The notes: a model not told the origin generated them from the letters alone. Shown: positions 7,535 to 55,496, numbered from the stretch's first letter. The stretch is DNA of 64,000 nt from an uncultured Acidobacteriota bacterium (GCA_963700145.1 OY969474.1:4384001-4448000); one strand, 5' to 3'. Made by a program: numbers and translations.

Positions 7535-7609
7535 CAGCTCCTCGCTTGCGGCGTCGGGTTGAGGACGATCACACTATGCTCGGCGCCCATCGAAATGGTG
7601 GACGCATGC

Positions 7610-38140: not shown

Positions 38141-39538
38141 CGCGTCCTGGTCCCCGCGGCGGCGCTCGGCCTCCTGCTGCTCTGGGCGCCCCTTCCCTTC
38201 GGCAGCGTGACACCGGGGGCCGTCGCCGCGCTGGAGGCCGCGTGCTTCGTCGCGTTCGCGCTCGCCGCCGCCACCGCCGCGGACCTGCGGCCGCTGCGCC
38301 GCGCCTGGCCGGTCGCCGCCCCGCTGCTCGGTCTGGCGCTCTGGGGGCTGGTGCAGTCGGCGCCCTGGCCGGTCAGGGTCGTCGAGGCGGTGGCGCCGGA
38401 GCAGGCGTGGCTGGCGCGCGGCGCGACGGAGGCCCTGGCCGCGGGGGCCCACGGCGGCGAGGCGCTGGCGCTCGGCTCCGGCGCGCCGCGGCCGGCGCTC
38501 TCGCTCGCCCCGTCGGCGTCGCGCGCCGCGGCCCTCGCCTGGGCGTCGATCGCCGCGGCGCTCGGCGCGGCGGCCCTCGCCGGCGCCGAGCGGCAGGGGC
38601 GGCGCCTCCTCGCCGCGGCACTCGGCGCGGGGGCGCTCGCCCAGGTCGTGTTTGGCGCCCAGGCCTGGTTCGCGCGCTCGGAGACGATCTGGGGTGTGGA
38701 CGTGCCGGGCGCCGCCACGCGGCTGCGCGGCACCTTCGTCAACCCCGACCACGCCGCCACCTATCTCGGCATCGCCCTGCCGGCCGCCTTCGCCTGGGGG
38801 TGGTGGGCGGCGCGGCGGGCGCGCGAGGAGCCGCACCTCGAGCGCCGGGTGCTCTGGCTGGCGCCGCCGGCGCTCGTCTGGCTCACGCTCTTCGCGGGCC
38901 TCGCCTTCACCGGCTCGCGCGGCGGCCTGGTGGCGGCGGTGACCGGCGCGGCGGTGCAGGGGCTGCTTCTCGCCGTGCGCGGGCGGCTGGCCGGCCGCGG
39001 GGGCTGGCGCTTCGCACCGGTCGGCGTCGTGGCGGCGGCGGTGGGGGTGGGCGTGGTGGCCGTGATCGGCTTGCAGGAAGGGCTCGGGCGAATCCTCGCC
39101 ACCACGCAGTACGACGTCTCCTGGGGCGCGCGCCGGGCGGCCTACGGCGCCACGCTCGACCTCTGGCGCCGCTTCCCCTGGACCGGCAGCGGCCTCGGCA
39201 CCTTCCGCGAGGCCTTCCCGCTCGTCCAGCCGCCCGGGCTCGCCGGCACCTGGCGCCACGCCCACAGCGACCCCGTCGAGCTGCTCGCGACGGCGGGGGT
39301 CGTCGGGGCGCTCCTCCTCGCCGCGGCGCTCGTCCCGCTCCTGCTGCGCCTGGCGCAGGTCCTCCAGCGCGGGCACCGCTCCGAGGACCGCGCCGCCGCT
39401 CTCGCCGCGCTCGGCGCCCTCGCCGCCCTGGCCGTCCACGAGGCGGTCGACTTCGGCCTCACGATCCCCGCCAACGCGCTCACTCTCGCGGTCGTCGTCG
39501 GCGCTGCGCTCGGGGCGCGGACCGAGCACGCCCGCTGA
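38129..39538 (+). CDS. O-antigen ligase (Wzy_C/WaaL) family protein
   Basis: APLPFGSV, GTFVNPDH, FTGSRGG, PWTGSGLGTF, HAHSD, IPANA. Confidence 0.88.
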   Translation: MIRHRVLVPAAALGLLLLWAPLPFGSVTPGAVAALEAACFVAFALAAATAADLRPLRRAWPVAAPLLGLALWGLVQSAPWPVRVVEAVAPEQAWLARGATEALAAGAHGGEALALGSGAPRPALSLAPSASRAAALAWASIAAALGAAALAGAERQGRRLLAAALGAGALAQVVFGAQAWFARSETIWGVDVPGAATRLRGTFVNPDHAATYLGIALPAAFAWGWWAARRAREEPHLERRVLWLAPPALVWLTLFAGLAFTGSRGGLVAAVTGAAVQGLLLAVRGRLAGRGGWRFAPVGVVAAAVGVGVVAVIGLQEGLGRILATTQYDVSWGARRAAYGATLDLWRRFPWTGSGLGTFREAFPLVQPPGLAGTWRHAHSDPVELLATAGVVGALLLAAALVPLLLRLAQVLQRGHRSEDRAAALAALGALAALAVHEAVDFGLTIPANALTLAVVVGAALGARTEHAR

Positions 39539-39542
39539 CGGT

Positions 39543-41159
39543 TCAGCGCGGCGGCTGCAGCAGCCGGACCGTTCCCGGCAGGACCTGACCGCCGGCGACG
39601 GGGTAGAGGTCGAGGAGGTGGAGGCCGGCGGCGAGCGGCGCGCGCAGCGCGATGATCTCGCCGCGCCGCGCCGGGAAGCGGCCGGCCACGCCGCCGTCCA
39701 CGCGGAGCTCGACCCAGGCCCCCTCGGCGGGGGCTTCGTCGATCCGGATCTCGAGCCCGCGCGCCGGCTCGCCGGTCAGGAACGCGAGCCGCGCGCGGCC
39801 GCGCTCCCAGGTCCAGGCGGAGGCCGGCCAAGCACCGGCGGCGAGATGGGCGAGCGCTTCCCGCGCCGCCGCCGCGGCCGTCGGATCGCCGGCGGCGCGC
39901 GCCAGCTCGGCCCGCGCCCGCCAGGTGAAGGGGCTGCGGTCCCAGGTGATGTGGACCAGCGCCAGCGCCGTGGCCGCCTCCTCCAGCCGCCCGCGCCGCG
40001 CCAGGGCCCGCGCCTTCTCGATCAGGTAGGGCGCCCAGGCCTCGGTCCACTCCGGCGCCCGCCGCTCGATCCGCTCGGCGCGCTCGAGGTCGCCGCCGGC
40101 GAGCGTCGCGAGCGCCGCCTGCTCGAGCGGCAGGTCGCGGCAGAAGCCGGCGAGCCGCCGCACCGCGGTCGCGCTGAGCGGACAGCCGTCGAGGCGGCAG
40201 CGGTCGAGCACCCAGCCGAGCTGCTCGCGCAGCGGTCCGGCGACGGAGCCTCCGGCCGGGCCCGGCGGGCAGAGCGCGAGCACGCGCGCCAGCAGGTCGG
40301 CGCCGCGCGGACCCTGCTCCGCCCGCGCCGCGACCGTCAGGAAGAGGTTGCGCGCCCCGACCGGGTCGCCGCCGCGCAGCCGCTCCTCGGCCTCGGCCAG
40401 GTCGGCCTCGAGGCGCTCCCGCAGCGACCGCCGCCAGCGGGCGTGCGCGGCGGTCGCTCCCTCCCAGTCGCGGCGCGCGGCGAGGACCCCCTGCAGCTCG
40501 CCCCAGGCTTCCGGCCGCGGCGGCACCAGGGCGAGGGCCGCCGCGCGGCTCGGCGCCACCTCCATCCAGGGTCCGATCAGGGCGCGGAAGGTCTCCTGAT
40601 CGCGAAAGGCGCGCTGCAGGAGCCGGTGCGCGAAGGCGCGTTTCTCCGGCGCCAGGGCGGGCCAGAGCTCGAGGTAGGCGGCGGCGAGGAAGCGCCGCGG
40701 CTCGCGCTTGCCCGGCCCGCGCGCGAGCGCGGCGAGGAGCGGCTCCTCCCACGAGGAGTACGAGGTGAGGAGACGAGGATCGCGCGCCCGCGCCCAGCCC
40801 AGATAGGTCGAGGCCCCGAGCACCGTCGCGGCGTCCCAGGCCGCCGGCCGTGCCGCCAGGACGCGGGAGGCGAGCGCGCGTGCCGCCGCCAGCCGCTCGG
40901 CACCGCCCGGGCCGGCGGCGGTGCGGGGGTCGAGCTCGGCGGCGAGGAGCGCCGTGGCCGCCACCGCCTCGGCGCGGCGCGGGTCGGGCTCGCGGCGGAC
41001 GTCCGCGGCGACGCGGGCGGGCAGCTCGCCGCCCGCCGTGCGCAGGATGCCGGCCAGCTTCTCCTGGTCGGCGCGCCACGCGCTCCAGGGCAGGAGGGGA
41101 AGCGGCGCGGCGAGGAGCGCGATCGCCGCGAGCAGCGCGCGGGCCGGCAGGCGGGGCAC
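39543..41159 (-). CDS. Membrane-anchored alpha-helical (TPR-like) hypothetical protein
   Basis: N-terminal hydrophobic segment; helical repeats; C-terminal beta-rich domain; GC3-biased frame. Confidence 0.6.
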   Translation of the reverse strand: MPRLPARALLAAIALLAAPLPLLPWSAWRADQEKLAGILRTAGGELPARVAADVRREPDPRRAEAVAATALLAAELDPRTAAGPGGAERLAAARALASRVLAARPAAWDAATVLGASTYLGWARARDPRLLTSYSSWEEPLLAALARGPGKREPRRFLAAAYLELWPALAPEKRAFAHRLLQRAFRDQETFRALIGPWMEVAPSRAAALALVPPRPEAWGELQGVLAARRDWEGATAAHARWRRSLRERLEADLAEAEERLRGGDPVGARNLFLTVAARAEQGPRGADLLARVLALCPPGPAGGSVAGPLREQLGWVLDRCRLDGCPLSATAVRRLAGFCRDLPLEQAALATLAGGDLERAERIERRAPEWTEAWAPYLIEKARALARRGRLEEAATALALVHITWDRSPFTWRARAELARAAGDPTAAAAAREALAHLAAGAWPASAWTWERGRARLAFLTGEPARGLEIRIDEAPAEGAWVELRVDGGVAGRFPARRGEIIALRAPLAAGLHLLDLYPVAGGQVLPGTVRLLQPPR

Positions 41160-41188: not shown

Positions 41189-42385
41189 ATGCCCGAAGGC
41201 TTCCGCTTCCACCCGCCGCCGGTCGAGCTCACCGCCGAGCTCCGCTGGCTGCTGCTGCGCGCCTTCGGTCCCGCCGGCGCGCCGCCGCCCGGCCCCGTGG
41301 ACGGCCCGCGCTGCCACGAGCTGGCGCGCCGCTTCGAGCTGGCGGCGCGGGTGGCGCACCGCACGGGGCGCGAGGCGCTGGCGGCCGAGGTCGGCGCGGA
41401 GGCCGCCGCCCGCTTCCAGCGCGACCGCCTCGCCGCCGCCGCCAACGCCCTGAGCCTGGAGGGCGTGGCGCGCGAGCTGGCGGCGACGGCGGCGCGGCTC
41501 GGGATGCCGCTCGTGCTGCTCAAGTTCGCGGCCTTGCATCGGACCGGCGCGGCGCCGCCGGGGAGCCGCTCGGCGGTGGACCTCGACGTCCTCGCTCCCG
41601 CCGCCGGCGCCGGCGAGCTCCAGGCCGCGCTCGTCGCCGCCGGCTACCGCCAGGCGGCGCTCCCCGAGCACGAGCACCACCTCCCGGCCCTCGGCCACCC
41701 CGTGTGCGGAATGGTCGAGGTCCATCGCGCCCTGCCCGGCGTCCGCCTCGCCGCGGCGGGCCGCTCCGCCACCTTCGAAGACCTGGCGGCCCACGCGCTC
41801 CTCGTCCCTTGCCGCGACCTTCCGGGTGACTGCGCCGTGCCGCCGCCGGGGGTGCTGGCCGCTCACGCCCTGGCGCACGGCCTCGCCCAGCACGGGAGCC
41901 AGCCCGCGGCCTACCCGCTGCTCAAGATGGTGGCCGACCTGATCGACCTCGGCTGGGCCGGGCCGGAGGCCGACAGGCTGGCAGCGGCGGCGCGGCCGCT
42001 CGTGGCCGGCGACGTCGCCGGCGAGGAGGTCGCGGCGGCGCGCGGCCTCGCCGCCGCGCTCGCCGCCGGCGACCTGCCGCCCGCCGAGAGCGGCGCGGCG
42101 CTGCTCCTGGCGCACGCCCTGGCCGGCCGGCTCGACCCCGACTACGCCGCGGCGCAGCGCCTCGATCTCTTCGCGGCGCAGCCGAGCGACCGGCCGCGCG
42201 CGACGCGCTGGGCCGGCACTCTCTGGCGCACGCTCGTCCTCACGCGCGGCCAGATCGACGCGGTCTACGGACCGCCGCGCCACCCCGGCGGCTACCTGCT
42301 GCGGCGCCTGGCTCGTCCTTTCGACCTCCTCGTCCGCTTTCTGCGCTACCGCGCCAGCCGCCGCCGCCTCGCCCGCCGCGGCTGA
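41189..42385 (+). CDS. Nucleotidyltransferase family protein (NTP_transf_5-like)
   Basis: LVLLKFAAL..RSAVDLDVL..GY..HHLP..VEVH..HALAHG..DL signature. Confidence 0.8.
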   Translation: MPEGFRFHPPPVELTAELRWLLLRAFGPAGAPPPGPVDGPRCHELARRFELAARVAHRTGREALAAEVGAEAAARFQRDRLAAAANALSLEGVARELAATAARLGMPLVLLKFAALHRTGAAPPGSRSAVDLDVLAPAAGAGELQAALVAAGYRQAALPEHEHHLPALGHPVCGMVEVHRALPGVRLAAAGRSATFEDLAAHALLVPCRDLPGDCAVPPPGVLAAHALAHGLAQHGSQPAAYPLLKMVADLIDLGWAGPEADRLAAAARPLVAGDVAGEEVAAARGLAAALAAGDLPPAESGAALLLAHALAGRLDPDYAAAQRLDLFAAQPSDRPRATRWAGTLWRTLVLTRGQIDAVYGPPRHPGGYLLRRLARPFDLLVRFLRYRASRRRLARRG

Positions 42386-42412: not shown

Positions 42413-43750
42413 ATGCCCAAGCGCCCACCGCCGCGACCGCAACGCAAGGCCGAGCGCGCGCGGCGGCCCGCCGCACCGCCGCCGCGCCGCCGCGCGCTCC
42501 AGGCCGCCGAGGTCCTGCTCTGGCTCGTCGTGCTGCTGCCGCCCCTCGTGCTGGTGCCGAGCGCGAAGGAGGTCTTCCGCCTCCCCAAGCTGATGCTCGC
42601 GGAGTGGCTGGCTCTGGCCTCCCTCCTGCCGCTCTGCTGGGAGCTGGCGCGGCGGGCGGAGGTGGGTTGGCGGGAGCTCCTGGACCTGCCGGCGCTCCGC
42701 GCCGTCCTCCCCCTCCTGCTCGTCGCCACGCTCGGGCTCGCCTCGACCGACCATCCGCTCCAGGTCCGCCAGGCGCTGCCCGATCTCTGGATCGGCGCCG
42801 CCTGCCTGGTGGGGTGGAGTGCCGGCTTGCCGGCGCGGCGGCTGGAGCGGCCGCTCGCGGGACTCTTGGTGCCCGGGGCCGTGCTGGCCCTGCTCGGCAT
42901 CTTCCAGTTCCACGGCGTCTACCGTCCCTTCGAGCTCCTCGGTGTGGTCGGGTCCGAGCGGCTGGAGGTGACGTCGCTCGCCGGCAACCCGGGAGAGCTC
43001 GGCGCCTTCCTCGTGTTGGCTACTCTCTGCGGCGGCTGGTGGCTCTCCCGCGCCGCGCCCGGGCCGCTGCGCTGGGCCGGGGCGGCGGCCCTCGCCCTCT
43101 GTCTCTACGGCCTGGCGGTGACCCTGACGCTGGCGGCTCTGGGGGCGCTGGCCGCCGCCGGGCTGGTCTTCGCTGCGCTCGCGCTGCCACCGCGGCGCGC
43201 CGCCGTCCTGCTCGGCGGCGGGCTGGTGGCCGCGGCGCTCCTCGCCGTCGCTCTGCCGCCGTTGCGCGTCCGGCTGGCGGAGAAGTCGGCACAGGTGGTG
43301 GCCGGAGACTGGAACGAGCTGCTGACCGGACGGGTGGACGGCTGGCGCGCCGCACTCTGGATGGTCGAACGGCATCCGCTGACCGGCGTCGGCCACGGCG
43401 CGTTCGCCGCCGAGTTCGTGCCGGCGAAGGAGGCGCTGCTGGCGCGCGGGGTGGGCTTCTACGAGCGGGAGCGGCGGGTCTTCGCCAACGCCCACAGCGA
43501 GCCGCTCGAGGTGGCGGCCACGCTCGGGCTCCCCGGCGTCGCGGCGCTCCTCTGGGGGGTCTGGGTGCTGGCGGCGGCGGCGCGGCGGGTCCGCGAGCCC
43601 CGCCTCGACCGCGCCTTCGTCTGGACGGGGTTGGCGGCGCTCGCCATCCTCTCTCTCGCCCACTTCCCCTTCCGCACCGCGCTGGTGGGCTACCCCGCCA
43701 CCCTCTTCTTCGCCTGGGTGCTGCGCCGCTCCGTGGAGGCCGGCGAATGA
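42413..43750 (+). CDS. O-antigen ligase (Wzy_C/WaaL) family protein
   Basis: FRLPK, SLAGNPG, R..W..M..HPLTGVGHGAF, NAHSE. Confidence 0.85.
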   Translation: MPKRPPPRPQRKAERARRPAAPPPRRRALQAAEVLLWLVVLLPPLVLVPSAKEVFRLPKLMLAEWLALASLLPLCWELARRAEVGWRELLDLPALRAVLPLLLVATLGLASTDHPLQVRQALPDLWIGAACLVGWSAGLPARRLERPLAGLLVPGAVLALLGIFQFHGVYRPFELLGVVGSERLEVTSLAGNPGELGAFLVLATLCGGWWLSRAAPGPLRWAGAAALALCLYGLAVTLTLAALGALAAAGLVFAALALPPRRAAVLLGGGLVAAALLAVALPPLRVRLAEKSAQVVAGDWNELLTGRVDGWRAALWMVERHPLTGVGHGAFAAEFVPAKEALLARGVGFYERERRVFANAHSEPLEVAATLGLPGVAALLWGVWVLAAAARRVREPRLDRAFVWTGLAALAILSLAHFPFRTALVGYPATLFFAWVLRRSVEAGE

Positions 43751-43751
43751 A

Positions 43752-44201
43752 ATGAGAGGCCGCACTCTCGCCGCGCTCCTCGGGCTGGTCCTGCTCTTCG
43801 GCCTCGCCGCTCACACCACGCGGGCGCGCGACCGCCTCCTCGCCAATCGGATCGTGCGCCAGGTGGAGCTGGTGACGATGGCCGCCGTGCGCTCCGGCAA
43901 CCTCTCGCCGCGCCTGGTCGCGATCAACCTCGCGGCGTTGCGGCGGGCGGCGGCGCTGGATCCCGCGGAGGTGGCGATCCCGATGGCGCGCGGCGGCCAA
44001 TTCATCCTTCTCCGGCGGCCTCACGCGGCGATCGAGGCGTACGGCGAGGCGCTGGCCCTCGAGCCCCGGCCCGAGATCTACTTGAACCTCGCGCGGGCCT
44101 ACCGGGCGGCCGGCGACGCGGCACGCGCGCAGCAGGCTCTCGAGCGGATCTCTCGGCTCGATCCCTACCTCGCCGACACGCCCGACCCGTTGCGGCCCTA
44201 G
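43752..44201 (+). CDS. Membrane-anchored TPR protein
   Basis: N-terminal TM; AIEAYGEALALEPRPEIYLNLARAY; starts 1 nt after the ligase stop. Confidence 0.75.
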   Translation: MRGRTLAALLGLVLLFGLAAHTTRARDRLLANRIVRQVELVTMAAVRSGNLSPRLVAINLAALRRAAALDPAEVAIPMARGGQFILLRRPHAAIEAYGEALALEPRPEIYLNLARAYRAAGDAARAQQALERISRLDPYLADTPDPLRP

Positions 44202-44827
44202 TCCGTCAGCTTCTCTTCCACCGCGTAGCGCACCAGATCGGCGTTGGTCTTCATGTTCATCTTCTCGAGGATGCGCGCGCGGTAGGTGCTGACCGTCTTG
44301 ACCGAGAGGTGGAGCGTCTCGGCGATCTCGCCCACCGTCTGCCCTTGGCCCATGCGCCGCAGGACCTCGAACTCGCGGTTCGAGAGGGTCTCGTGCGGCG
44401 CCTGGCCGAAGCCGGCGCCGAGGCTCTCGGCGAGCCGCTCGGCGAGAGCGGGGCTGACGTACTTGCCGCCGTTGTGGACCTTGCGGATCGCCTCGACGAG
44501 CTGGCCCGGGGCGACGTCTTTGGTCAGATAGCCGTCGGCGCCCCCTTTGAGGCAGCGGACGGCGTAGTGGTCCTCGGGGTGGACGGTGAGCATGAGGACG
44601 CGCAGCCGGGGGTCGCGTGCCTTGAGCTCCTGCGCCGTCTCGAGCCCCCCCTTGCCGGGCATCGACACGTCGAGGAGGACGACCTCCGGCCTGGTCTCGC
44701 GCGCCCGCTCGAGCGCCTCGTGGCCGGTGCCGGCTTCGGCGACGACGGTCAGCCCGTGGGTCTCGACGATCTTCCGGAGGCCCTCGCGGACGATCTGGTG
44801 GTCGTCGGCGATGAGGATCTTGATCAC
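44198..44827 (-). CDS. NarL/LuxR-family response regulator (UvrY/GacA-like), orphan
   Basis: ILIADDH, LLDVSMPG, GADGYLTK, LSNREFEVL, LSVKTVSTYRARILEK. Confidence 0.92.
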   Translation of the reverse strand: MIKILIADDHQIVREGLRKIVETHGLTVVAEAGTGHEALERARETRPEVVLLDVSMPGKGGLETAQELKARDPRLRVLMLTVHPEDHYAVRCLKGGADGYLTKDVAPGQLVEAIRKVHNGGKYVSPALAERLAESLGAGFGQAPHETLSNREFEVLRRMGQGQTVGEIAETLHLSVKTVSTYRARILEKMNMKTNADLVRYAVEEKLTD

Positions 44828-44911
44828 GTGATCGAGCGTTCCATCAGCTGCGCGAAGCTTAGCCCAACCCTGGCCTGGCGCTTGGACCGGCGTGAAAAAG
44901 GCTTGCACGGG

Positions 44912-44945
44912 GTCGGGGAAAGCCGGGAAAGCCGGGAAAGCCGAC
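44912..44945. repeat. 9-bp tandem repeat (gggaaagcc x3) bracketed by GTCGG...CCGAC inverted arms
   Basis: gtcggggaaagccgggaaagccgggaaagccgac read directly. Confidence 0.8.
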
Positions 44946-44963
44946 ATGGCAGTTTTCTCGAAC

Positions 44964-45875
44964 CTACCGAGCCGCCGCGCTGGACGTGCGATAGCCGCGC
45001 GCGCCAAGCTCCTCGCGAACGATCACCGGCGCCGGCGACTCCTCGGCGAGGATGCGACGGTAGAGCTGCGTCGTCTCGGGCATCGGCGGGACGTCGAGCT
45101 CCGCCGCCAGGAGGCGCCGCAGCGACTCGTAGACCGCGACCGCTCGGCCGCGGCGTCCGGACAGCGCGTACAGGCGCATGAGCTGGCGATGAGGCTCTTC
45201 CGCCAGCGGCTCCATCGCCTGCAGCCGGCGGGCGTAATCGATCCCCGCGCCGTAGCCGCCGTGGCGCAGATGGTGCTCGACGAGGTCGGTGAGCGCCGCC
45301 ACCGCCGCCTCGCGCCAGCGCTCCTGCTCGGCCAGCAGCCACGCCTCGAAGTCGGTGCCGCCGGGGAACCAGAAACCGGCCAGGAAGTCGCCGCCGTAGA
45401 CCTCGACGGCCCGGGCCAGCGCGCCCGGGTCGATCCCGTCCCGGAGATCGCGAGCGCGGCGCAGCGCGCCGGTGAAGATCGTGAGATCGATCCAGGCGCC
45501 GGGCGGGGGAGTGAATGCCAGGCTGTCGTGGCGTGTCGTGAGCGGCGACTGGTTGCCGGCCGGCGGCGTCAGGGTCTGGCGGAGGTTGTAGAAGGCCTGG
45601 CGCAGGTTGTGCCGCGAGGTCGCGGCGTCGGCCTCCGGCCAGAGCAGGGCGCCGAGGCTTTCGCGCGGCAGCGCGCGATCCGGATGGCAGACGAGATAGG
45701 CGAGGAGCGCCCTTGTGCGCCGCGACTCGAAGCACAGCGGCGGCCGCCCGCGGTAGCCTACCTCGAAGCTGCCGAGGAGCCGGACCTCCAGCCGCGCGGC
45801 GCTCTCCCGATCCCGACGCTGGACCGCGGCGCGCCCGTTCATCGCTTTCCCCGCCGCCTTCCCTGCCGTTCCCAT
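44964..45875 (-). CDS. SARP-family (OmpR-type HTH + BTAD) transcriptional regulator
   Basis: LEVRLLGSFEV, ALLAYL, LLWPEAD, NLRQ, YGGDFLAGF, FEAWL, EPLAEEPHRQLMRLY; start may be 45843. Confidence 0.88.
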   Translation of the reverse strand: MGTAGKAAGKAMNGRAAVQRRDRESAARLEVRLLGSFEVGYRGRPPLCFESRRTRALLAYLVCHPDRALPRESLGALLWPEADAATSRHNLRQAFYNLRQTLTPPAGNQSPLTTRHDSLAFTPPPGAWIDLTIFTGALRRARDLRDGIDPGALARAVEVYGGDFLAGFWFPGGTDFEAWLLAEQERWREAAVAALTDLVEHHLRHGGYGAGIDYARRLQAMEPLAEEPHRQLMRLYALSGRRGRAVAVYESLRRLLAAELDVPPMPETTQLYRRILAEESPAPVIVREELGARGYRTSSAAAR

Positions 45876-46133: not shown

Positions 46134-49100
46134 ATGAATACTCATAAGTCTATTCTTGTCGGAGTTTGCGCGTTGGCACTGTGGGCGCTCGCCGCGCCGG
46201 TGCAGGCAGTGATCCAGTGCAGCTCGCCGACCCAGTGCTGCCTCGACGACCTCAACGACGCGGGCGCGGTGTGCACGGCCAACGACGTGACGTTCGTCCT
46301 CGTCGGTCTCGGCACCCAAAACGACGGCTGCACCGACACCAGCGACACGGTGAGCATCTTCCTGGGTGCGATCGTCAAGAACACCACCGCCGGCACGCGC
46401 TACGACATCGGTATGTGGATCTCCACCGACGGCGATCCCAACGGCGACGGGGCGCTCACCGGTCAGTGCGCCCGCGAGATGCTCACTCCCGCTTCGCCGA
46501 CGACTTACGTCGACAACGGCATCGCGCCCACCTGCCTGGGGAGCGACGGGAACCTCCTGGACCTCGGGCGCGCGATCGCCGGTCCGAACGGCACGGAGGC
46601 CAACGGCTACTACCTCACGGCGGAGAGCGCCGGCGTCCAGGACGCCTGCGGCGACCTCGCCAAGGGGAGCTCGACCGGCTGCGACACCAACGGTGATGGG
46701 ATTTGGGACGACTCCGTCATGAACTTCACCACGGCGGTCACCGTCCCCTGCGACGACATCGACAACAGCGGTGGGGGTACCTCCGGCGACGGCTTCGTCA
46801 ACCTCCCGACCTGCGCCTCCTGGGGGCAACAGGAAGACGAGGTCGACGACGACGGCGATGACCTGTGCGAGTCGGCGAACGAGATCGAGAACGGCACCCC
46901 CTCCAAGTGCAACTGTGAGGACTCCAACTCGACGATCCCGGTCCCGCGCCTGGCCTGCAACGTCCCCCAGACGGTTTGCAGCCCGGCCAGTATCCAGGTC
47001 GGTCAGTCGACGACCTGCACGGTACGGATGCAGAACAATTCGACCTGCACCCCGGTGATCGTCACTACACCCTCGAACGAGCGCGAGCGCTGCGGCACGG
47101 GGAGCTTCGTCCGCTTCCGCACCGACTTCCCGGAGGCGCTCGGCACGGTCTCGAACGTGTTGATCAATGGTGTCGCGCCGACCGTCCCCGGCGACGGCGT
47201 CGTGACCACCGGCGACGACCACATCCTGTGGACTCCCCGCAGCGGCCCGATCTACTCCGAAAACTCGGCCGGCGTCATGGGCCCGGGCGACGTCGAGACC
47301 CTGACCTACACTTTCACCGCCACCGCGCCGTCGACCGGGACAACCACAATGTCGACGCAGGGCTGGTGGTCCAACAACTCCCTGTTCACCCCGGAGGTGG
47401 CGCAGGCCGCGCTCACCTGCAGCGCGCTGCTGACCACCCCGGTGACCGTGGCCTCCTTCCGCGCCGACCGCACGGGCGGCGTCACCAACTTCGAGTGGAC
47501 GACCGCCACCGAGGTCGGCAACGTCGGCTTCAACCTGCTGGCGCAGACGGCGAAGGGCTGGGAGCGGATCAACCGCGAGCCGATCGCCTCCAAGGTCGTC
47601 GACTCGACACTGCCGCAGAGCTACCGCTACGAGGCCTCCGGTCTCAAGGCCACGGCCTTCCGGCTGGAGGAGATCGACCTCGCGGGCACCGTCGTACCGC
47701 GCGGCGAGTTCACGCTCGGCCAGCCGTACGGCGTGCGGCCGCGGCCGCAGGCGATCGACTGGCAGACGCCGGCGGTACAGGGCGGCAAGAAGTTCGCCGC
47801 GGCGGCCGCCAAGGGCGGCGGCAGCGTCGGCGGCGCCGTCGACAGCGTGAACCTGCTGGTCGGCCAGACCGGAATCCAGCGCGTCAGCTACGAAGCGCTG
47901 GCCGGCGCCGGCCTCGACCTCGCCAGCGTCAACGCCAACCACATCGCGCTGCTCAACCGCGGCGCGGCAGTGCCGCTGCGCCTGGCCGCGCCGGCCGGAA
48001 ACGGCAAGAAGCCCTCCTCCTTCGGTCCCGGGGGCCACGTCGAGTTCTGGGGCGAGGCCCTCGACACCCTGTACACCGGCACCAACGTCTACACCCTGCG
48101 GCGCGAGCCCAGCAGCTCGCGCTCCATCGGCACCGATGCCCGCACGCCGAGCGGCACGCCGCCCGCCTTCTACATGGAGACGACGCGGGTCGAGCGCAAC
48201 GCGCAGTACAGCTTCGGCTCGCCGATCGCCGACCCCTGGTACGACACGCGGATGCTCGCCTTCTCGGCGCCCGCCAGCTTCTCCTTCACGGTCAACGCCG
48301 ACGACTACGTCGCCGGCGCGGCGCCGGCGACCCTGACGGTCGAGCTGTGGGGCTCGTCGGTGTGGCCGGCCGCTCCCGATCACCACTTGCGCGTGGCGCT
48401 CAACGGCGTCCAGGTGGCCGACGCCACCTTCGACGGGCGCGCGGCGCACACCGTCACCGTGCCGGTGCCGGCGGGCGTCCTCCAGGCCGGGGCCAACAGC
48501 TTGACGCTGACGGTGCCGGGCGACCTCGGCACCCAGTTCGACCTGCAGAGCCTTGAGAGCTACTCGCTGAGCTATCCACGGGCCTTCGCGGCCCGCGGCG
48601 GCCGGCTGGAGTTCACTTCCGCCGGTCCCGCCTTCCGCGTGACCGGGCTGGGCAGCTCCGCGGTCGTGGCCTACCGCCTCGACGCCGGCGGGCCGGTGCA
48701 GCTCACCGGCGTGCAGGTGCAGGCGAGCGGCGGCGGCTACGCGGCCACCTTCCCCGGCGGCGCCGCGGCGGCCCGTTACGCCGTCGCCGATGCCTCGGGA
48801 GTCTCCGCCCCGGGCCTGCAGGCGGGCCGCCCGCAGACCGACATCACGAGCGGCAACGCCGACTACCTCGTCATTGCCCACCCGTCCTTCACTGGCGGGT
48901 TGGGATCGCTGGTCAACCTGCACCAGTCGGCGGGGCGCTCGGTCAAGGTGGTGAACGTCGAGGACGTCTACGCGCAGTTCGGGCACGGCATCTTCGACCC
49001 GCAGCCGATCCGCGACTACATCGCCCACGCGGTGAACCGGATGGGCACCGAATACGTGCTGCTGGTCGGCGGCGACAGCTACGACTACCGCAACTACCTG

Positions 49101-49898
49101 GGCGCCGGCTCGGTCAGCTTCCTGCCGACGCTCTACGTCGCCACCGGCAACCAGATCTTCTTCGCGCCGGCCGACCCGCTGTTGGCTGACGCCGACGGCG
49201 ACCGGGTGCCGGACGTGGCCATCGGACGGTTCCCGGTGCGGACGGCGGCGGAGCTGGACGCGATGATCGCCAAGACCTGGGACTACGCCGGCAAGGACTA
49301 CAACGGTACGGCAATCATGGCGGCGGACCTCTTCGACCAGCGCGCCAAGATGTCGTTCAAGTTCCACAGCGACCAGATCCTGGAGAAGCTCGGCGGCGAC
49401 TGGACGGCGCAGAAGGCCTACCTCGACGACATCAGCCTGGCCGACGCCCGGTCGCGGCTGCTGGCCTCGCTCAACCAGGGGACGGCGCTGACTTCCTACG
49501 TCGGGCACTCCGGGCCGACGGCGTGGACCTTCTCGGGCCTCTTCTCGAGCGGCGACGCGACCGGTCTGAACAACGCGGGCCGGCCGACGGTCGTCGTGCA
49601 GTGGGGGTGCTGGAACGCCTACCACGTCGAGCCGCTCTACAACACCTTGGGGCACAGCTTCCTGCTCTTCGGCGACCGCGGCGCGGCGGCGGTCCTGGGC
49701 TCGGCGACCCTGATGGAGACGGCGTCGGCGCAGCGCCTCAGCGACAAGCTGGCGCCGCTGATCGGTGCCCCGGGCCGGAGCCTCGGCAGTGCGGTGACGG
49801 CGGCCAAGCAGGAGCTGGCGCGCGAAGCGCCGGAGCTGGCCGACGCGATTCTCGGTTGGACGATCCTCGGCGACCCGGCGCTGGTGATCGAGCCGTAA
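46134..49898 (+). CDS. Secreted C25-family (gingipain-like) cysteine peptidase with Cys-rich N-terminal domain
   Basis: Signal peptide; ADYLVIAH, VEDVYAQFGHG, YVLLVGGDSYD, PDVAIGRFP, YVGHS (His), QWGCWN (Cys), C-terminal LGDPAL. Confidence 0.88.
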   Translation: MNTHKSILVGVCALALWALAAPVQAVIQCSSPTQCCLDDLNDAGAVCTANDVTFVLVGLGTQNDGCTDTSDTVSIFLGAIVKNTTAGTRYDIGMWISTDGDPNGDGALTGQCAREMLTPASPTTYVDNGIAPTCLGSDGNLLDLGRAIAGPNGTEANGYYLTAESAGVQDACGDLAKGSSTGCDTNGDGIWDDSVMNFTTAVTVPCDDIDNSGGGTSGDGFVNLPTCASWGQQEDEVDDDGDDLCESANEIENGTPSKCNCEDSNSTIPVPRLACNVPQTVCSPASIQVGQSTTCTVRMQNNSTCTPVIVTTPSNERERCGTGSFVRFRTDFPEALGTVSNVLINGVAPTVPGDGVVTTGDDHILWTPRSGPIYSENSAGVMGPGDVETLTYTFTATAPSTGTTTMSTQGWWSNNSLFTPEVAQAALTCSALLTTPVTVASFRADRTGGVTNFEWTTATEVGNVGFNLLAQTAKGWERINREPIASKVVDSTLPQSYRYEASGLKATAFRLEEIDLAGTVVPRGEFTLGQPYGVRPRPQAIDWQTPAVQGGKKFAAAAAKGGGSVGGAVDSVNLLVGQTGIQRVSYEALAGAGLDLASVNANHIALLNRGAAVPLRLAAPAGNGKKPSSFGPGGHVEFWGEALDTLYTGTNVYTLRREPSSSRSIGTDARTPSGTPPAFYMETTRVERNAQYSFGSPIADPWYDTRMLAFSAPASFSFTVNADDYVAGAAPATLTVELWGSSVWPAAPDHHLRVALNGVQVADATFDGRAAHTVTVPVPAGVLQAGANSLTLTVPGDLGTQFDLQSLESYSLSYPRAFAARGGRLEFTSAGPAFRVTGLGSSAVVAYRLDAGGPVQLTGVQVQASGGGYAATFPGGAAAARYAVADASGVSAPGLQAGRPQTDITSGNADYLVIAHPSFTGGLGSLVNLHQSAGRSVKVVNVEDVYAQFGHGIFDPQPIRDYIAHAVNRMGTEYVLLVGGDSYDYRNYLGAGSVSFLPTLYVATGNQIFFAPADPLLADADGDRVPDVAIGRFPVRTAAELDAMIAKTWDYAGKDYNGTAIMAADLFDQRAKMSFKFHSDQILEKLGGDWTAQKAYLDDISLADARSRLLASLNQGTALTSYVGHSGPTAWTFSGLFSSGDATGLNNAGRPTVVVQWGCWNAYHVEPLYNTLGHSFLLFGDRGAAAVLGSATLMETASAQRLSDKLAPLIGAPGRSLGSAVTAAKQELAREAPELADAILGWTILGDPALVIEP

Positions 49899-49934
49899 CC
49901 TTCAAGGGCACGGCGCTTCCTATGACGTCCTGCG

Positions 49935-49971
49935 ACGCCCGACGGCCCGGTCCGTCGGGCGTTTTCATTTT
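49935..49971 (+). terminator. Intrinsic terminator after the C25 peptidase gene
   Basis: Stem acgcccgacgg / ccgtcgggcgt, 6-nt loop, followed by tttcatttt. Confidence 0.75.
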
Positions 49972-49974
49972 CAT

Positions 49975-51858
49975 ATGTCCGGCCTGCTGCTGATCCATCA
50001 CCGCGACGGGCGGCCGGTCGAACGGCCGCTCGCGGCGCGGCTCCTGGCGGCCCTCGACCACCGCGGCCCGGACAGCCGCGACATCTGCTGGGTCTCCGGC
50101 GCCGCCCTCGGCCACCAGCATTTCTGGACCACCCCCGAGGAGATCGGCGAGCGCCAGCCGCTCGGCGACGCGGCACGCGGCGTCCACCTGGCGCTCGACG
50201 GCCGGCTCGACAACCGCGAGGAGCTGATCGCGGCCCTGCCGGACGATCCCGGCACGGAGCTCTCCGACGCCGCGCTCGTGCTGCGCGCCTATCTCACCTG
50301 GGGCGAGGAGCTCTTCACCCGCCTGCTCGGGCCGCTCGCCGTCGTCGTGCTCGACCTCCAGCGGCGGCGGGTGGTCTGCGGCCGCGACGCCCTCGGCGAC
50401 CGCACGCTCTTCTATTACCTCGACCGGCAGGTGCTCGCCGTGGCCTCCGAAGCGCACGCGCTGCTCGGCCATCCGAGCGTGTCGTCGCGGCTCGACGAGG
50501 CGACCGTGGCGCGCTTCTACGCTCTCCGGGCGCCGGCCCACGGCGCTTCGTTCTTCGCCGACGTGCACGAGCTGCCGCCGGCCCACGGCCTCTCCGTCGG
50601 CCCCGAAGGCGCCCGGCAGTGGCGCCATTGGAGCCCGCGCGTCGAGGCGTCGCCGCACCGCCGGAGCGACGCCGACCACGTCGCGGAGTTCCGCGCGGTG
50701 CTGCGCGAGAGCGTGCGCTGCCGGCTGCGTGCCGACGGGCCCTCTGCGGTGCTGATGAGCGGCGGCCTCGACTCGACCTCGGTCGCGGCGCTCGCCGCGC
50801 GCGAGACGGCCGACGCGGACCCGAGACGGCGGCCCCTCGCGGTCTCCTGGGTCTTCAACGAGCTGACGTCGATCGACGAGCGCTCCTACATGGATCCGGT
50901 GGTCGAGGCGGCCGGCCTCGCAACCCTGCGCTTCGCCGGCGACGACGCCTGGCCGCTCGCCGATCCCGAGACCTGGCCGCACCACCCCGACGCGCCGCTC
51001 GAAGGGCTGTTTCGCCGCTTGCGCCAGCGCGCCTACGCCGCCGCGGCCGGCGCGGGCCGCCGGGTGCTGCTCACCGGGGAGTACGGCGACAACCTCTACA
51101 CCGGCCACGTCGACTGGCTGAGCGACTTGGTCCGCGAGGGCCGCTGGCTGGCCGCCGGGCGTGGTCTCCTCTCGGGTCTGCGGCCGGAGAACCGGCGGGC
51201 GCCCGGCGCGACGGTCGGCGACGCAGTCGTCCGTGCCCTGGGCGGGCGGCGGTACGAGCCGCAGGCACCCGACTGGCTGACGGTCGAGGCCCTCGCTCAT
51301 CTCGATGGCGAGGACGAGTCCGCCCCGCTCGGCCTCACCGCCGGGCGCCGCGAGCGCTGGGACGCCCTGCTCGACGGCCGCAGCTCGCAGGCCGTCGCAC
51401 TCGAGACTGCCAACGCCGCCCGCGCCGGCATCGAGCTGCGCCGTCCGTACCGCGACCGCCGCCTGGTCGAGCTCTGTCTGGGGCTCCCGGCGCACCTCGT
51501 CTTCCGCCCGGGCTGGTTGAAATGGATCTTGCGGCAGGCCATGGCGGGGATCCTTCCCGAGGCGGTCCGCCGGCGCCGCCACGGCAGCTCGCTCTTCCCG
51601 CTCTGCCGCCGCGGGCTCGTCGAGCGCGAGGCGGCGACGGCGGACGCGCTGCTGCAATCGCCCATAGCGATATGGCCGCGATACGTCCGCGCCGATTGGC
51701 TGGCGGCGGCCTATCCCCGCGCTCTCGCCGAGCAGCGCCAAGGCGTCGCGGCTGTGATAGCGTGGCGCTGTATCTGCATGGAGTTGTGGAGCCAACGCCG
51801 TCGCGGCGAGGCGTTCGTCGCCTCTGCCGTGCCGGCGGAACTTTTCATGGTGGGATGA
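49975..51858 (+). CDS. Lasso peptide cyclase (asparagine synthase-like, C protein)
   Basis: Begins MSG (no Ntn Cys); RGPD, GRLDNREEL, RDALGDR, MSGGLDS, TGEYGD, PYRDRRLVE, KWILRQAM; directly upstream of the precursor. Confidence 0.88.
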   Translation: MSGLLLIHHRDGRPVERPLAARLLAALDHRGPDSRDICWVSGAALGHQHFWTTPEEIGERQPLGDAARGVHLALDGRLDNREELIAALPDDPGTELSDAALVLRAYLTWGEELFTRLLGPLAVVVLDLQRRRVVCGRDALGDRTLFYYLDRQVLAVASEAHALLGHPSVSSRLDEATVARFYALRAPAHGASFFADVHELPPAHGLSVGPEGARQWRHWSPRVEASPHRRSDADHVAEFRAVLRESVRCRLRADGPSAVLMSGGLDSTSVAALAARETADADPRRRPLAVSWVFNELTSIDERSYMDPVVEAAGLATLRFAGDDAWPLADPETWPHHPDAPLEGLFRRLRQRAYAAAAGAGRRVLLTGEYGDNLYTGHVDWLSDLVREGRWLAAGRGLLSGLRPENRRAPGATVGDAVVRALGGRRYEPQAPDWLTVEALAHLDGEDESAPLGLTAGRRERWDALLDGRSSQAVALETANAARAGIELRRPYRDRRLVELCLGLPAHLVFRPGWLKWILRQAMAGILPEAVRRRRHGSSLFPLCRRGLVEREAATADALLQSPIAIWPRYVRADWLAAAYPRALAEQRQGVAAVIAWRCICMELWSQRRRGEAFVASAVPAELFMVG

Positions 51859-52067
51859 CGATGAAGCCCGAGGAAACGTCGATGAAGCCAGAGACCGCGA
51901 GGACCTTGCTGCAGCCAGAGACCGCAGGGATGCCGGCGCCGAGCCGGCGTGCCTACACGCGCCCGCGGCTCGAGGTTCTGGGCGACATCCGGGACCTCAC
52001 TCTGGGCGGTACTCCGGGCGTCGGCGACAGCGGCGATCCGGTGAACTTCGATCCCCCTCAGCCCTAG
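51855..52067 (+). CDS. Lasso peptide precursor (A); predicted core GGTPGVGDSGDPVNFDPPQP at 52005-52064
   Basis: Leader YTRPRL (YxxPxL), G-D, Thr at -2; core Gly1 with Asp8; ATG overlaps the cyclase TGA; alternative ATGs at 51861 and 51882; not called separately in the ORF track. Confidence 0.9.
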   Translation: MTMKPEETSMKPETARTLLQPETAGMPAPSRRAYTRPRLEVLGDIRDLTLGGTPGVGDSGDPVNFDPPQP

Positions 52068-52074
52068 CAGGCCC

Positions 52075-52878
52075 GTGACCGGGCTCACAGACGTCCCTCC
52101 TCTGACCCGACGAGGCTCGGGCGGCGAGAGCGCCGTGCTGTTCGACGGCGAGGCGCCGGTTGCCGGGCAGACGCGCCGCGTGCGCTGCGTCCTCCAGCCT
52201 GACGTCTACCGCATCGAGATTGAAGGCGCCGGCACCTTCGCCGTGGCGCGCACCGGCGGCGCCGTCACGGTGCTCGGCGGCGCCGCGGCCGGCACGGCTG
52301 CCGGCGACACGGCCCTCGCGGCGGCGCTCGCCGGTCCGCCGCTCGCGCTCGGCTTCGCCCTCCGCGGCACGTTCTGTCTCCACGCCAGCGCCGTCGAACG
52401 GGAGGGGCGCGCGATCGCTTTCCTCGGCGAATCGGGGGCGGGCAAGTCGACTCTGGCCCGGCTGTTGGCGGGCTTGCCGGACGGCGGCTGGCGGCGGCTC
52501 GCCGACGACCTGCTGCCGGTAGCGCTTTCGCCAGGCGGGCCGGAGGCGCGGCCGCGCTTCCCCCAGCCGGGGATCGGCGGCGCCGCCGCCGCGGCGCTCC
52601 CGGAGCGCCTGCCGCTCGCCGCGGTCTACGTGCTCGCCGGGCCCGCCGGCGAGGTTGCGATCACCCCTCTGGCCGGCCGCGCCGGAGCGCTGGCGCTGGT
52701 CCGGCACACGGTGGCCGCCCGCCTCTTCGCCGCCGACCTCCTCGCCCGCCACCTGGAGCACGCCGCTGCGGTCGCCGCCGCCGCGCCGGTGCGGGTCCTG
52801 ACCTACCCGTGGACGGCGGACGCTCTCGCCGCGGTCGCGGCGGCGCTGGCGGCGGCGCTGGAGCGGCGCGATGGCTGA
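52075..52878 (+). CDS. HPr kinase-like lasso peptide kinase (K)
   Basis: LHASAV, GESGAGKSTLA, LADD motifs; lies between precursor and RRE. Confidence 0.85.
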   Translation: MTGLTDVPPLTRRGSGGESAVLFDGEAPVAGQTRRVRCVLQPDVYRIEIEGAGTFAVARTGGAVTVLGGAAAGTAAGDTALAAALAGPPLALGFALRGTFCLHASAVEREGRAIAFLGESGAGKSTLARLLAGLPDGGWRRLADDLLPVALSPGGPEARPRFPQPGIGGAAAAALPERLPLAAVYVLAGPAGEVAITPLAGRAGALALVRHTVAARLFAADLLARHLEHAAAVAAAAPVRVLTYPWTADALAAVAAALAAALERRDG

Positions 52879-53164
52879 GACGGAGCTGGCCGCCGGCACC
52901 CGCCTCCGCCCGCGCGACGGCGTCCTCTTCCGCGACCTCGACGGCGAGGCGGTCCTCCTCGACTCGACGCGCGGCACCTACTTCGGCCTCAACGAGGTGG
53001 GGACCCGCGCCTGGGCCCTGCTCGCCGGCGGCGCCACGCTGGCGGAGGCCCTCGCCGTCCTCCTCGCCGACTTCGAGGCGCCGCGCGAGCAGGTCTGGCC
53101 CGACCTGCAGGCGCTGGTGCGCGAGCTCGCCCGCCATGAGCTGGTGGAAGTCGTCGCGCCGTAA
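52871..53164 (+). CDS. PqqD-family RiPP recognition element (lasso B1)
   Basis: DLDGEAVLLD..GTYFGLNEVGTRAWALL; DLQALVRELA..LV. Confidence 0.9.
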   Translation: MAETELAAGTRLRPRDGVLFRDLDGEAVLLDSTRGTYFGLNEVGTRAWALLAGGATLAEALAVLLADFEAPREQVWPDLQALVRELARHELVEVVAP

Positions 53165-53594
53165 GCTGGCGCGCTTCGCGGCGCTCTCCTGGCGCGACCG
53201 CGCCACCCTGCTCGCCGTCTTCGGCTCCCTCCTCGCCGTCGAGGCGGCGCTCCGCCTCCTCGGGCTGGCGCGGACGCGGCGGCTCTTCGCCCCGCGCCGC
53301 GGCCGCGTGCCGCCGCCCGCCGCTGCCGAGGTCGAGCGCCTCGCCGCTCTCGCGGTGGCCGCCTGTCGCGCCGTCTATCCCGCCGCCTGCCTGCCGCGCG
53401 CGCTCGCCCTGCAGCGCCTCCTCGCCGGCCGCGGCGCCCCGGCCGCGCTCAAGATCGGCGTTCGCCGCGACGGCGAGGAGCTGGCGGCCCACGCCTGGGT
53501 CGAGGTCGACGGGCGGCCGGTGGGGGAGCCGGCGGGGATCGAGGAGCGGTTCGCGGAGCTGCGGGACGCGCGAGGGTCGTCACACCCCGCGTGA
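53136..53594 (+). CDS. Lasso peptide leader peptidase (B2, transglutaminase-like)
   Basis: CLPRALAL, LKIGV, AHAWVE catalytic motifs; ATG at 53136. Confidence 0.9.
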   Translation: MSWWKSSRRKLARFAALSWRDRATLLAVFGSLLAVEAALRLLGLARTRRLFAPRRGRVPPPAAAEVERLAALAVAACRAVYPAACLPRALALQRLLAGRGAPAALKIGVRRDGEELAAHAWVEVDGRPVGEPAGIEERFAELRDARGSSHPA

Positions 53595-54974: not shown

Positions 54975-55019
54975 GCGACGACTTTACATGACGCGCGTCG
55001 CCCGCTAGGCTGATCGATC

Positions 55020-55496
55020 ATGCGCCAGAACGTCTCGTCCGCCTGTGCGGTGCTCGCGGTCCTCCTCTGCGCCGGCGCCGTCGCGGCGCAGGAGCGCAGC
55101 CTTCGTTTCGAGAAGACCGTCGACTGGCAGCTCGGCAAGCCGATCGCGCTGAACGCCACGGTCGGCCCGGTGCGAGTCGCGAGCGTCGAGTTCCGGAAAG
55201 GGGAGGCGGGGGGCGGCGGGCCGGGCGGCGCGATCCTCGGCAGGCTGCGCGGCGCCTCCGAGACGGAGGCCACCGTGACCGCCGCCTTCGACACCGAGAA
55301 CCCCTCCGCCGACGAGTGGGTGGTGACGTACACCCTCGACTTCCTCGACGCCAAGGGGAAGCTCATCGACCGGGCGAGCGGCAAGGAGCAGTTCGAGGGG
55401 GAAGCCGACGTCTACCGCCTCGACCACGCCATCCTCGAGTACGTCCTCCCCTTCGTCGACCGGGTGAAGGTGCGGCTCGAGGCCAAGTACGACTAG
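55020..55496 (+). CDS. Secreted hypothetical protein
   Basis: Signal peptide ending AVAA-QE; strong coding bias; abuts metF. Confidence 0.7.
   Translation: MRQNVSSACAVLAVLLCAGAVAAQERSLRFEKTVDWQLGKPIALNATVGPVRVASVEFRKGEAGGGGPGGAILGRLRGASETEATVTAAFDTENPSADEWVVTYTLDFLDAKGKLIDRASGKEQFEGEADVYRLDHAILEYVLPFVDRVKVRLEAKYD

Follow-up and report, generated by a model that had tools for sequence, protein, structure and literature searches.

A lasso peptide operon at the edge of a polysaccharide locus

The DNA analysed here is a stretch of 64,000 nt (the window, G000:C1:4384001-4448000) from the genome of an uncultured acidobacterium, which consists of a single 5.46-Mb contig with a G+C content of ~73%. 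Positions 49975-53594 of the window harbour five same-strand genes, in the order C-A-K-B1-B2, which by their sequences are a real gene set for a lasso peptide. This operon is located at the edge of a polysaccharide locus, between a gene for a C25 peptidase and that of a priming transferase, with metF and metH beyond. Its genes are as follows.

49975..51858, + strand: lasC, lasso macrolactam synthetase, 627 residues; Asn_synthase (PF00733) E 2e-36; SGGLDS ATP-binding motif
51855..52067, + strand: lasA, precursor, 70 residues; its ATG overlaps the lasC stop as ATGA; alternative starts at 51861, 51882 and 51930
52075..52878, + strand: lasK, HprK-like peptide kinase, 267 residues from GTG 52075, or 247 residues in the database copy, which begins at 52135
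52871..53164, + strand: lasB1, PqqD-type RiPP (peptide synthesized by ribosomes and then modified post-translationally) recognition element (RRE), 97 residues; PF05402 E 6e-15
53136..53594, + strand: lasB2, transglutaminase-like leader peptidase, 152 residues; PF13471 Transglut_core3 E 6e-25

A first-pass annotation of the stretch had described a tightly coupled lasso operon with these components, and profile matches place all five genes at the coordinates above. The frames overlap or nearly abut: lasC and lasA share 4 nt, lasK and lasB1 8 nt and lasB1 and lasB2 29 nt, and the gap between lasA and lasK is 7 nt from GTG 52075 or 67 nt from GTG 52135. The lasB2 stop overlaps that of the convergent WcaJ-like gene, as had also been noticed, by 15 nt. 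The small precursor gene was said to have been missed by the open reading frame (ORF) track, and the 70-residue lasA product is indeed absent from the 150-residue ORF listing.

All frames of the operon are intact, and the catalytic motifs are kept. Comparison with the same-genus genome G004 gave dN/dS values of 0.17-0.28 for C, A, K, B1 and B2 (0.24 for lasC), next to 0.37 for the C25 gene, 0.21 for WcaJ and 0.16 for MTHFR; these values come from one genome pair and, given the strong codon bias of the genome, are limited as estimates. A search of metagenome contigs for related loci returned one locus, on an independent contig that bears A-K-B1-B2-WcaJ-MTHFR; at the protein level its enzymes are 88-98% identical to those of the window, and its precursor 66%. 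A search of sequencing runs listed small DNA shares in soil and sediment metagenomes and no RNA run.

LasC matches the lasso cyclase model NF033535 with E 1e-111 and 374.5 bits. It starts with MSGLL and has no Cys2, whereas AsnB of the same locus starts with (M)CGI; the earlier observation that the cyclase lacks the N-terminal nucleophile (Ntn) Cys is thus correct. In local Pfam analyses, LasK has only P-loop-level matches, with a weak one to TIGR04352 HprK_rel_A (E 3e-8), and its 63 database homologues bear PF27840 and, distantly, PF07475. Residues H83, G98, G101, G103, K104, S105, D124 and D125 are invariant in an alignment of 22 sequences. They make up the H..G..G.GKS..DD motif of paeninodin-type kinases, i.e. 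the residues that Duan et al. mutated in BsfK (PMC10368454), so that an HPr-like kinase is present, as annotated, in spite of its weak score with the HprK model. LasB1 scores under the cut-offs of NF033530 and NF033536, and LasB2 above that of NF033537 (E 9e-22; 77.9 bits vs 33 bits). The leader peptidase function is therefore present in the split form that the annotation had named, with an RRE (B1) and a transglutaminase-like protease (B2). LasB2 is the sole confident B2 protein of the genome, with one strong PF13471 match genome-wide and one copy in tblastn.

The precursor LasA scores above the cut-off of the lasso_leader_L3 model NF033521 (20.9 vs 19 bits). Its leader (...YTRPRLEVLGDIRDLTL) carries YTRPRL at positions -17 to -12 and Thr(-2). 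With the core boundary set by placing Tyr at -17 after Duan et al. (PMC10368454), the predicted core is GGTPGVGDSGDPVNFDPPQP, encoded at 52005-52064, with Gly1, Thr3, Asp8 and a C-terminus ending in ...PPQP. LasA thus combines the leader motif, penultimate Thr, Gly1 and Asp8 of class II lasso precursors, and an eight-residue Gly1-Asp8 ring is predicted from its sequence. Among 20 aligned precursors of the family, the residues that never vary are P(-14), L(-12), G(-8) and T(-2), while Y(-17), G1, G5 and S9 hardly do. Every precursor has Ser or Thr at core position 3, and position 8 is Asp or Glu in 18, the acidic residue being found one position later in G057 and L001. A C-terminal Ser is present in the L002 precursor only. 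The alignment leaves out L101, L109 and L114, whose precursors were missed by the pattern search; tblastn gave hints of precursors in L101 and L114.

In paeninodin and pseudomycoidin, it is a C-terminal Ser that carries the phosphate (PMC6993621, PMC10368454). As the core predicted here ends in Pro, phosphorylation of that type is impossible. The site of BsfK is Ser3, for which it accepts Thr3 as well; it works on a precursor that lacks a C-terminal Ser, and its action is helped by B1 (PMC10368454). By analogy with BsfK, Thr3 is the likely phosphorylation site. The peptide is probably phosphorylated, and by its sequence it resembles the Bsf type more closely than paeninodin.

Unlike paeninodin-type clusters, the operon is not closed by a gene for an ABC exporter (D). 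Pfam analyses of 66 window ORFs revealed no ABC_tran match besides the P-loop of the kinase, and tblastn searches with three ABC proteins, which covered the window together with 20 kb of preceding and 12 kb of following sequence, found none. A genome-wide six-frame search with PF00005 gave 52 matches, none of which is in the window; the nearest one is 31.5 kb before the window start, and no ABC ATPase is encoded within ~80 kb of the operon. The scanned ORFs also yielded no Peptidase_S9 (isopeptidase-type) match. These searches agree with the earlier statement that the 64 kb encode neither an ABC transporter nor an isopeptidase.

A C25 peptidase as the conserved partner of the module

The gene immediately upstream of the operon encodes a large putative protease.

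46134..49898, + strand: secreted PorU-like C25 cysteine peptidase, 1254 residues; Peptidase_C25 E 1e-61; signal-like N-terminus; C-terminal catalytic domain at residues 911-1251

It is the only C25 gene of the genome. Its product has a single match in PDB, to PorU (6za2_A), with 25.9 bits and an alignment that spans the GH and C motifs, and scores 144 bits with the PorU sortase model NF033707, under the 420-bit cut-off for a full-length match. His1125 and Cys1159 align with those of PorU and are invariant in 22 of 22 homologues, and the catalytic dyad is thus intact. The domain family to which it belongs is a large one, as 839 of 8000 candidates scored reach E <= 1e-20, and has variable, adhesin-like N-terminal parts.

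A terminator-like hairpin is found at 49934-49973 on the + strand, with a 12-bp stem that includes 9 G-C pairs and a T-rich tail; it ends 2 nt before the lasC ATG. The hairpin scan of the region found three sites for 0.8 expected. A promoter scan of 49500-55100 found no sigma-70-like site.

We determined the distribution of the module using the kinase. With a threshold of E <= 1.1e-15, orthologous K genes are present in 21 of the 61 genomes of the order, G000 included. In an even sample of the phylum, K was found in 3 of 251 genomes at E <= 1e-15, a count that may be too low because ten candidates were scored per genome. Judged by the names of the closest homologues, the lineage belongs to Thermoanaerobaculia, Acidobacteriota. 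For 20 relatives, we analysed ~20 kb around the kinase matches by tblastn, composition-based gene calls and Pfam. A kinase-alignment search of genome contigs was keyed on the P-loop; of its 75 loci, only about L001-L020 are kinase relatives, the rest being mostly ABC or other P-loop proteins.

The C25 gene adjoins the module in 17 of the 20 related loci, co-directionally in 15 and divergently in two. In the other three, it is 8.7 kb away, the contig is too short or there is none. The adjacency is kept through at least five gene orders, namely C25-C-A-K, C25-A-C-K, C-A-C25-K, C-A-K-C25 and K-A-C25-C. The C25-C-A-K set is also present in G245, from another order, and in a Promineifilum (Chloroflexota) metagenome-assembled genome (MAG), L001, and in spread-out form in a Thermoanaerobaculia MAG, L002. 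The locus of G245 (L120, G245:C1:2167500-2187400) has an in-frame TGA in the kinase match and a cyclase match in two overlapping pieces, and the G245 module may be frameshifted or decaying.

The module thus has its conserved partner in the C25 peptidase and not in the polysaccharide genes. Among the papers listed in our literature searches, judged by title, none links C25 peptidases with lasso peptides or RiPPs. A predicted complex of the C25 domain (residues 880-1254) with the precursor had a score of 0.01, which gives no answer either way. We considered C25 as a substitute for B2 in leader removal and rejected this, since the leader must be removed before ATP-dependent cyclization in the cytoplasm and C25 has a signal-like N-terminus.

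The relatives also put the missing exporter in perspective. Its absence, which the first-pass annotation had pointed out, is no special feature of the window, as all 20 related loci lack a McjD-like exporter. Only one of them, L108, has ABC genes at all, namely an ABC-2 permease and an acyltransferase-ABC_tran fusion. Of the additional loci, L002 carries two genes that form an ABC-2/Wzt-like pair, and a D-like ABC gene is found in L018, a locus without C25.

The polysaccharide locus and its peptide slot

The operon is followed by the convergent gene of the WcaJ-like transferase and preceded by the bulk of the polysaccharide locus. As the first-pass annotation had reported, profile matches identify Wza, Wzc, O-antigen ligases and glycosyltransferases (GTs) on the side away from WcaJ; the upstream genes comprise those of Wza, Wzc, CpsB, Wzx, two Wzy_C proteins, a PF14907 protein and many GTs. 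The features closest to the operon are the following.

37427..39538, + strand: Wzy_C; part of a block syntenic with peptide cassettes across the family
39543..41159, - strand: unnamed periplasmic all-alpha protein; same Wzy_C/PF14907 block
41189..42385, + strand: PF14907 nucleotidyltransferase, DLD motif at residues 131-133, 7.6 kb upstream of the operon; same block
42413..43750, + strand: Wzy_C; same block
43752..44201, + strand: TPR protein; same block
44198..45007, - strand: LuxR-type response regulator, divergent from the C25 gene
44964..45875, - strand: BTAD/SARP-like regulator, divergent from the C25 gene
53580..54974, - strand: WcaJ-like polyprenyl-phosphate glycosylphosphotransferase; Bac_transf E 3e-62; TIGR03025 378 bits, above the 295.6-bit cut-off

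A BTAD gene is also found beside C25 in G004 and G046. The product of positions 55020-55496, between WcaJ and metF, is small, starts with a signal-like sequence and matches no family; only G004 and G002 have kept it. A CHAT-domain protein is encoded near the module both in the window (62586-63998) and in G012 (L113:2-1873).

The locus includes a gene for a fused ATP sulfurylase/APS kinase (28951-30456), and two sulfatase-family genes lie upstream (L116:3-1853 and 5324-8200), which together suggest that the polysaccharide is sulfated. At window positions 9268-11046, 5844-7534 and 4195-4947, the GT block codes for a carbamoyltransferase, two FkbM-type methyltransferases and another methyltransferase. 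Judged from this gene content, the polymer is probably heavily decorated.

The linkage of the operon to polysaccharide genes, on which the first-pass annotation was centred, stands in the window's own family but not outside it. WcaJ or Wzy_C genes are present in the retrieved stretches of 4 of the 20 loci (G004, G002, G020 and G033). A Wzy_C gene is 15 kb away in G021, and in G046 a GT4-family priming transferase gene, a PF14907 gene and a GT1 fragment are found at the ends of the stretch. The other module loci have neighbours such as genes for tRNA synthetases, transketolase, GGDEF proteins and FG-GAP giants. Most homologous operons therefore lack linkage to polysaccharide genes, which is part of what the annotation had itself listed as counting against its proposal. 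The neighbourhood comparison it had called for thus favours the C25 linkage over that with WcaJ and Wzy_C: the polysaccharide linkage is family-specific, and the C25 linkage is both more general and more novel.

Within the family, the locus has a recurrent organization. The orthologue of the Wzy_C gene at 42413-43750 is single-copy in 52 of the 61 relatives and is a core gene of the order. In ~18 further genomes of the family, a weaker kinase match, often with a B2 gene, is 2-7 kb from that orthologue. All seven sister loci that we retrieved have the TPR and Wzy_C genes, with Wzy_C near a kinase/RRE cassette or its precursor. Other parts of the block are less constant, with the PF14907 gene in five of the seven, the all-alpha protein gene in five, a further Wzy_C gene in three and WcaJ in four. 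Five of the seven also have a C25 gene, whose product is ~31% identical to that of the window, and five code for a two-Cys precursor, YE(P/R)PRIL...C...C..GPISS.

One sister locus, L123 of G031, was annotated in detail, the others with such cassettes being L121, L125, L126, L127 and L118:10918. The cassette at L123:1616-13700 codes for C25, a PF14907 fusion, a kinase-like protein, B2, PqqD, a DUF3344 protein and a radical SAM/SPASM protein, together with a PqqD-domain protein and a two-Cys precursor that hardly varies and has ...GPISS at its end. The radical-SAM/SPASM gene was seen in L123 and in G020, which carries both the lasso cassette and one of the sister type. The window genome has no copy of the two-Cys sister precursor. 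We considered whether B1 and B2 of the window might be the resident pair of the sister cassette, and found no support for this, as identity to the sister pair is only 33-37%, the genes are ordered differently and C25-C-A-K-B1-B2 also occurs in G046, outside a WcaJ context. The interval between WcaJ and TPR/Wzy_C is a conserved slot for kinase/RRE peptide systems, usually with C25, the content of which is exchanged between genera. A conserved slot with exchanged cassettes argues for some functional tie to the locus, in this one family.

A second lasso module is located just before window position 1 (G000:C1:4376797-4383524; L116:12797-19524, minus strand). It comprises, in order, genes for an SdrD_B-domain protein, a cyclase-like protein (NF033535 E 1e-52), a precursor, a second cyclase-like protein (E 2e-63) and a second HprK-like kinase. 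The precursor has a leader with YLPPEL..., ...YLPPELVIYGSLRELTL, followed by the core SGANDPPADSIVGGSTQTG. This module has no B1 or B2 gene and adjoins the gene of a Trans_reg_C/BTAD/AAA_16 regulator that runs into window positions 1-1785. Two lasso modules, which may share one B1/B2 pair, thus flank the polysaccharide region, whose gene products include sulfatases and a PAPS synthase as well as Wza, Wzc and Wzx.

Interpretation and comparison with known systems

We propose the following scheme. B1 would bind the YTRPRL motif of the leader, K would phosphorylate the linear precursor, most likely on Thr3 as at the BsfK position, B2 would cut after Leu(-1) and C would join Gly1 to Asp8, yielding a 20-residue lasso. 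In a clade made of Thermoanaerobaculia-like Acidobacteriota and at least one Chloroflexota MAG, C, A and K accompany C25 and have no dedicated ABC exporter. In the window's family, the module fills the slot between WcaJ and the TPR/Wzy_C/PF14907/Wzy_C block, which sister genera fill with a different kinase/RRE/B2/radical-SAM cassette, mostly with its own C25 gene. The modified peptide would then act at the envelope or matrix with the C25 peptidase rather than as a classical exported antibiotic. The conserved pairing with C25, the lack of an exporter and the slot make an envelope or matrix role the most likely one. Altogether, we consider it likely that the operon is a functional class II lasso cluster of the phosphorylated type, with a Bsf-like logic, whose peptide acts at the envelope or matrix with C25. 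A role in the glycan system, as initially put forward, is plausible: the slot in the family, the second lasso module, the PF14907 gene and the co-location reported in Bacilli (Popov et al., Nat Commun 2026; PMC13381572) are in its favour, and the presence of WcaJ or Wzy_C in only 4 of 20 loci is not. It is conceivable, though in our view unlikely, that kinase-tailored peptides and a PorU-like C25 transpeptidase form one envelope system, in which a phosphorylated, possibly phospho-glycosylated peptide would be processed or attached at the surface and which, in this family, would be connected with the Wzy-dependent polysaccharide pathway by way of WcaJ, PF14907 and the two Wzy_C-type ligases, so that the surface glycan would bear a peptide tag or start from a peptide primer.

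Several observations weigh against the explanation that we consider likely. LasC scores under the curated NCBI cut-off of NF033535 (525 bits), and LasK reaches 33 bits with curated HprK models that have a 200-bit cut-off. The strong hairpin makes co-transcription of C25 and the lasso genes uncertain; transcription may proceed from the C25 gene into the lasso genes through an attenuating terminator. L107 has C-A-K without a C25 gene, and the composition-based gene calls of the relatives contain errors. The B1 and B2 genes adjoin the module only in G000, G004, G002 and G046; they are 11.6 kb off in G020, and elsewhere B2 is found on a different contig, mostly next to a second kinase of more distant sequence, so that most relatives would need B proteins in trans or none. 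Pseudomycoidin forms without B1 and B2, and a C-A-K cluster without B genes has also been pointed to (PMC6993621). Finally, the relatives are kin, and their shared neighbourhoods may be inherited rather than selected. This last point also favours another explanation, that the operon makes an ordinary free lasso peptide, antimicrobial or signalling, exported by an unlinked transporter, its placement in the locus and by C25 being inherited synteny. The 52 ABC ATPase matches elsewhere in the genome, the housekeeping or unrelated surroundings of the module in most relatives outside the family and the description of ABC transporter genes as present in many rather than all lasso clusters (PMC10368454) fit such a peptide. 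Adjacency to C25 through at least five gene orders and two phyla, a second, unrelated cassette with C25 and a kinase in the same interval and the absence of a McjD-like exporter from all 20 related loci do not, and we find this explanation doubtful, albeit one to be taken seriously.

Alternatively, the phosphopeptide could be glycosylated, on the phosphate by the PF14907 protein or on Ser/Thr by a Wzy_C-type ligase, and joined to the polysaccharide or prime it, with C25 as a transpeptidase. PorU links type IX secretion cargo to anionic lipopolysaccharide. The PF14907 gene, with its DLD motif, lies between two Wzy_C genes in a block syntenic with peptide cassettes across the family, PsmN is needed for hexoses on the pseudomycoidin phosphate (PMC6993621), and Popov et al. 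also consider modification of peptides by neighbouring polysaccharide genes (PMC13381572). Yet polysaccharide genes are missing from the 10 kb around most module loci, the PF14907 gene is outside the operon, the peptide has no evident route across the inner membrane and the Wzy_C orthologue is near-universal and single-copy in the order, with or without the module; we hold such attachment to be distinctly unlikely. The lasso peptide might instead be a dedicated inhibitor, regulator or substrate mimic of C25 that keeps it latent or tuned. Protease inhibition is known for some lasso peptides, C25 has an intact active site and the adjacency of the two is tight and lasting, but the C25 protein has a signal-like N-terminus and the peptide is produced in the cytoplasm and lacks an exporter; we hold this role to be highly unlikely. 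That the operon is a decaying remnant without a product, as the lack of an exporter and of a recognizable sigma-70 promoter could suggest, is barely credible in view of its intact frames and kept catalytic motifs, its dN/dS values and its presence on an independent metagenome contig with enzymes of 88-98% identity. Our preferred explanation remains that of a functional cluster whose peptide acts with C25 at the envelope or matrix.

The roles of phosphorylated lasso peptides are unknown, as Popov et al. conclude (PMC13381572). The window provides a second, phylogenetically distant case of such clusters in a polysaccharide locus and adds a testable partner, a secreted C25 peptidase that follows C, A and K through rearrangements and is also found with an unrelated cassette in the same slot. 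If C25 acts on the peptide, such peptides would be envelope or matrix components rather than antibiotics, and the mining of clusters and the assays would change accordingly. If the link is inherited synteny only, the operon is no more than a new lasso cluster of the Bsf-like kind in an acidobacterium that is uncultured.

Among known systems, the bsf cluster of Bradymonas sediminis (BsfA/K/B1/B2/C/N/D) shares with the window operon the split B1/B2, the HprK-like kinase motif, YxxPxL at -17 to -12, the Gly1-Asp8 ring that is predicted here, a hydroxyl residue at position 3 and the absence of a C-terminal Ser (PMC10368454). It differs by Ile(-2), Ile or Val in its subfamily (PMC10368454), in place of a Thr(-2) that is invariant in all 20 precursors here, and by its D transporter and N genes, both missing from the window operon. 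Unlike bsf, the latter has a C25 partner, is set in a polysaccharide locus and comes from a different phylum.

The PF14907 gene near the operon resembles psmN of the pseudomycoidin cluster, whose product we take to be a member of the same family. The paeninodin and pseudomycoidin clusters (padeCAKB1B2D and psmCAKB1B2ND) have the C-A-K-B1-B2 order that the first-pass annotation had likened to paeninodin, as well as kinase tailoring, but they combine a C-terminal Ser acceptor with a terminal ABC exporter, whereas the window core ends in Pro and no exporter follows (PMC6993621). Paeninodin-type leaders have WxxP according to Popov et al. (PMC13381572), and that of the window has YxxP. As PsmN, an uncharacterized NTP transferase, is needed for hexose addition to the pseudomycoidin phosphate (PMC6993621), the PF14907 gene at 41189-42385 is a candidate for a tailoring enzyme.

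PorU (PDB 6za2) and the C25 peptidase of the window are both secreted and share the C25 fold region with the GH(S)G and C motifs. The catalytic domain of the latter is C-terminal, behind a long variable region, and its homologues extend to Chloroflexota.

In Bacilli, paeninodin-like lasso and LPP clusters have been described within capsular polysaccharide loci; their roles are given as unknown, with biofilm suggested, and LPPs and paeninodins are held to be restricted to Bacillota (PMC13381572). These loci, like ours, have two kinase/RRE peptide systems per polysaccharide locus with common leader motifs (PMC13381572). The second cassette is of the LPP type in Bacilli (PMC13381572) and of the radical-SAM/SPASM type in the sister genera here. 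Those of Bacilli include an SpI-like peptidase together with an MsbA-like transporter, and that report makes no mention of C25 (PMC13381572). Co-location with capsule loci is thus already known in Bacilli, and we found the link with C25 in no publication.

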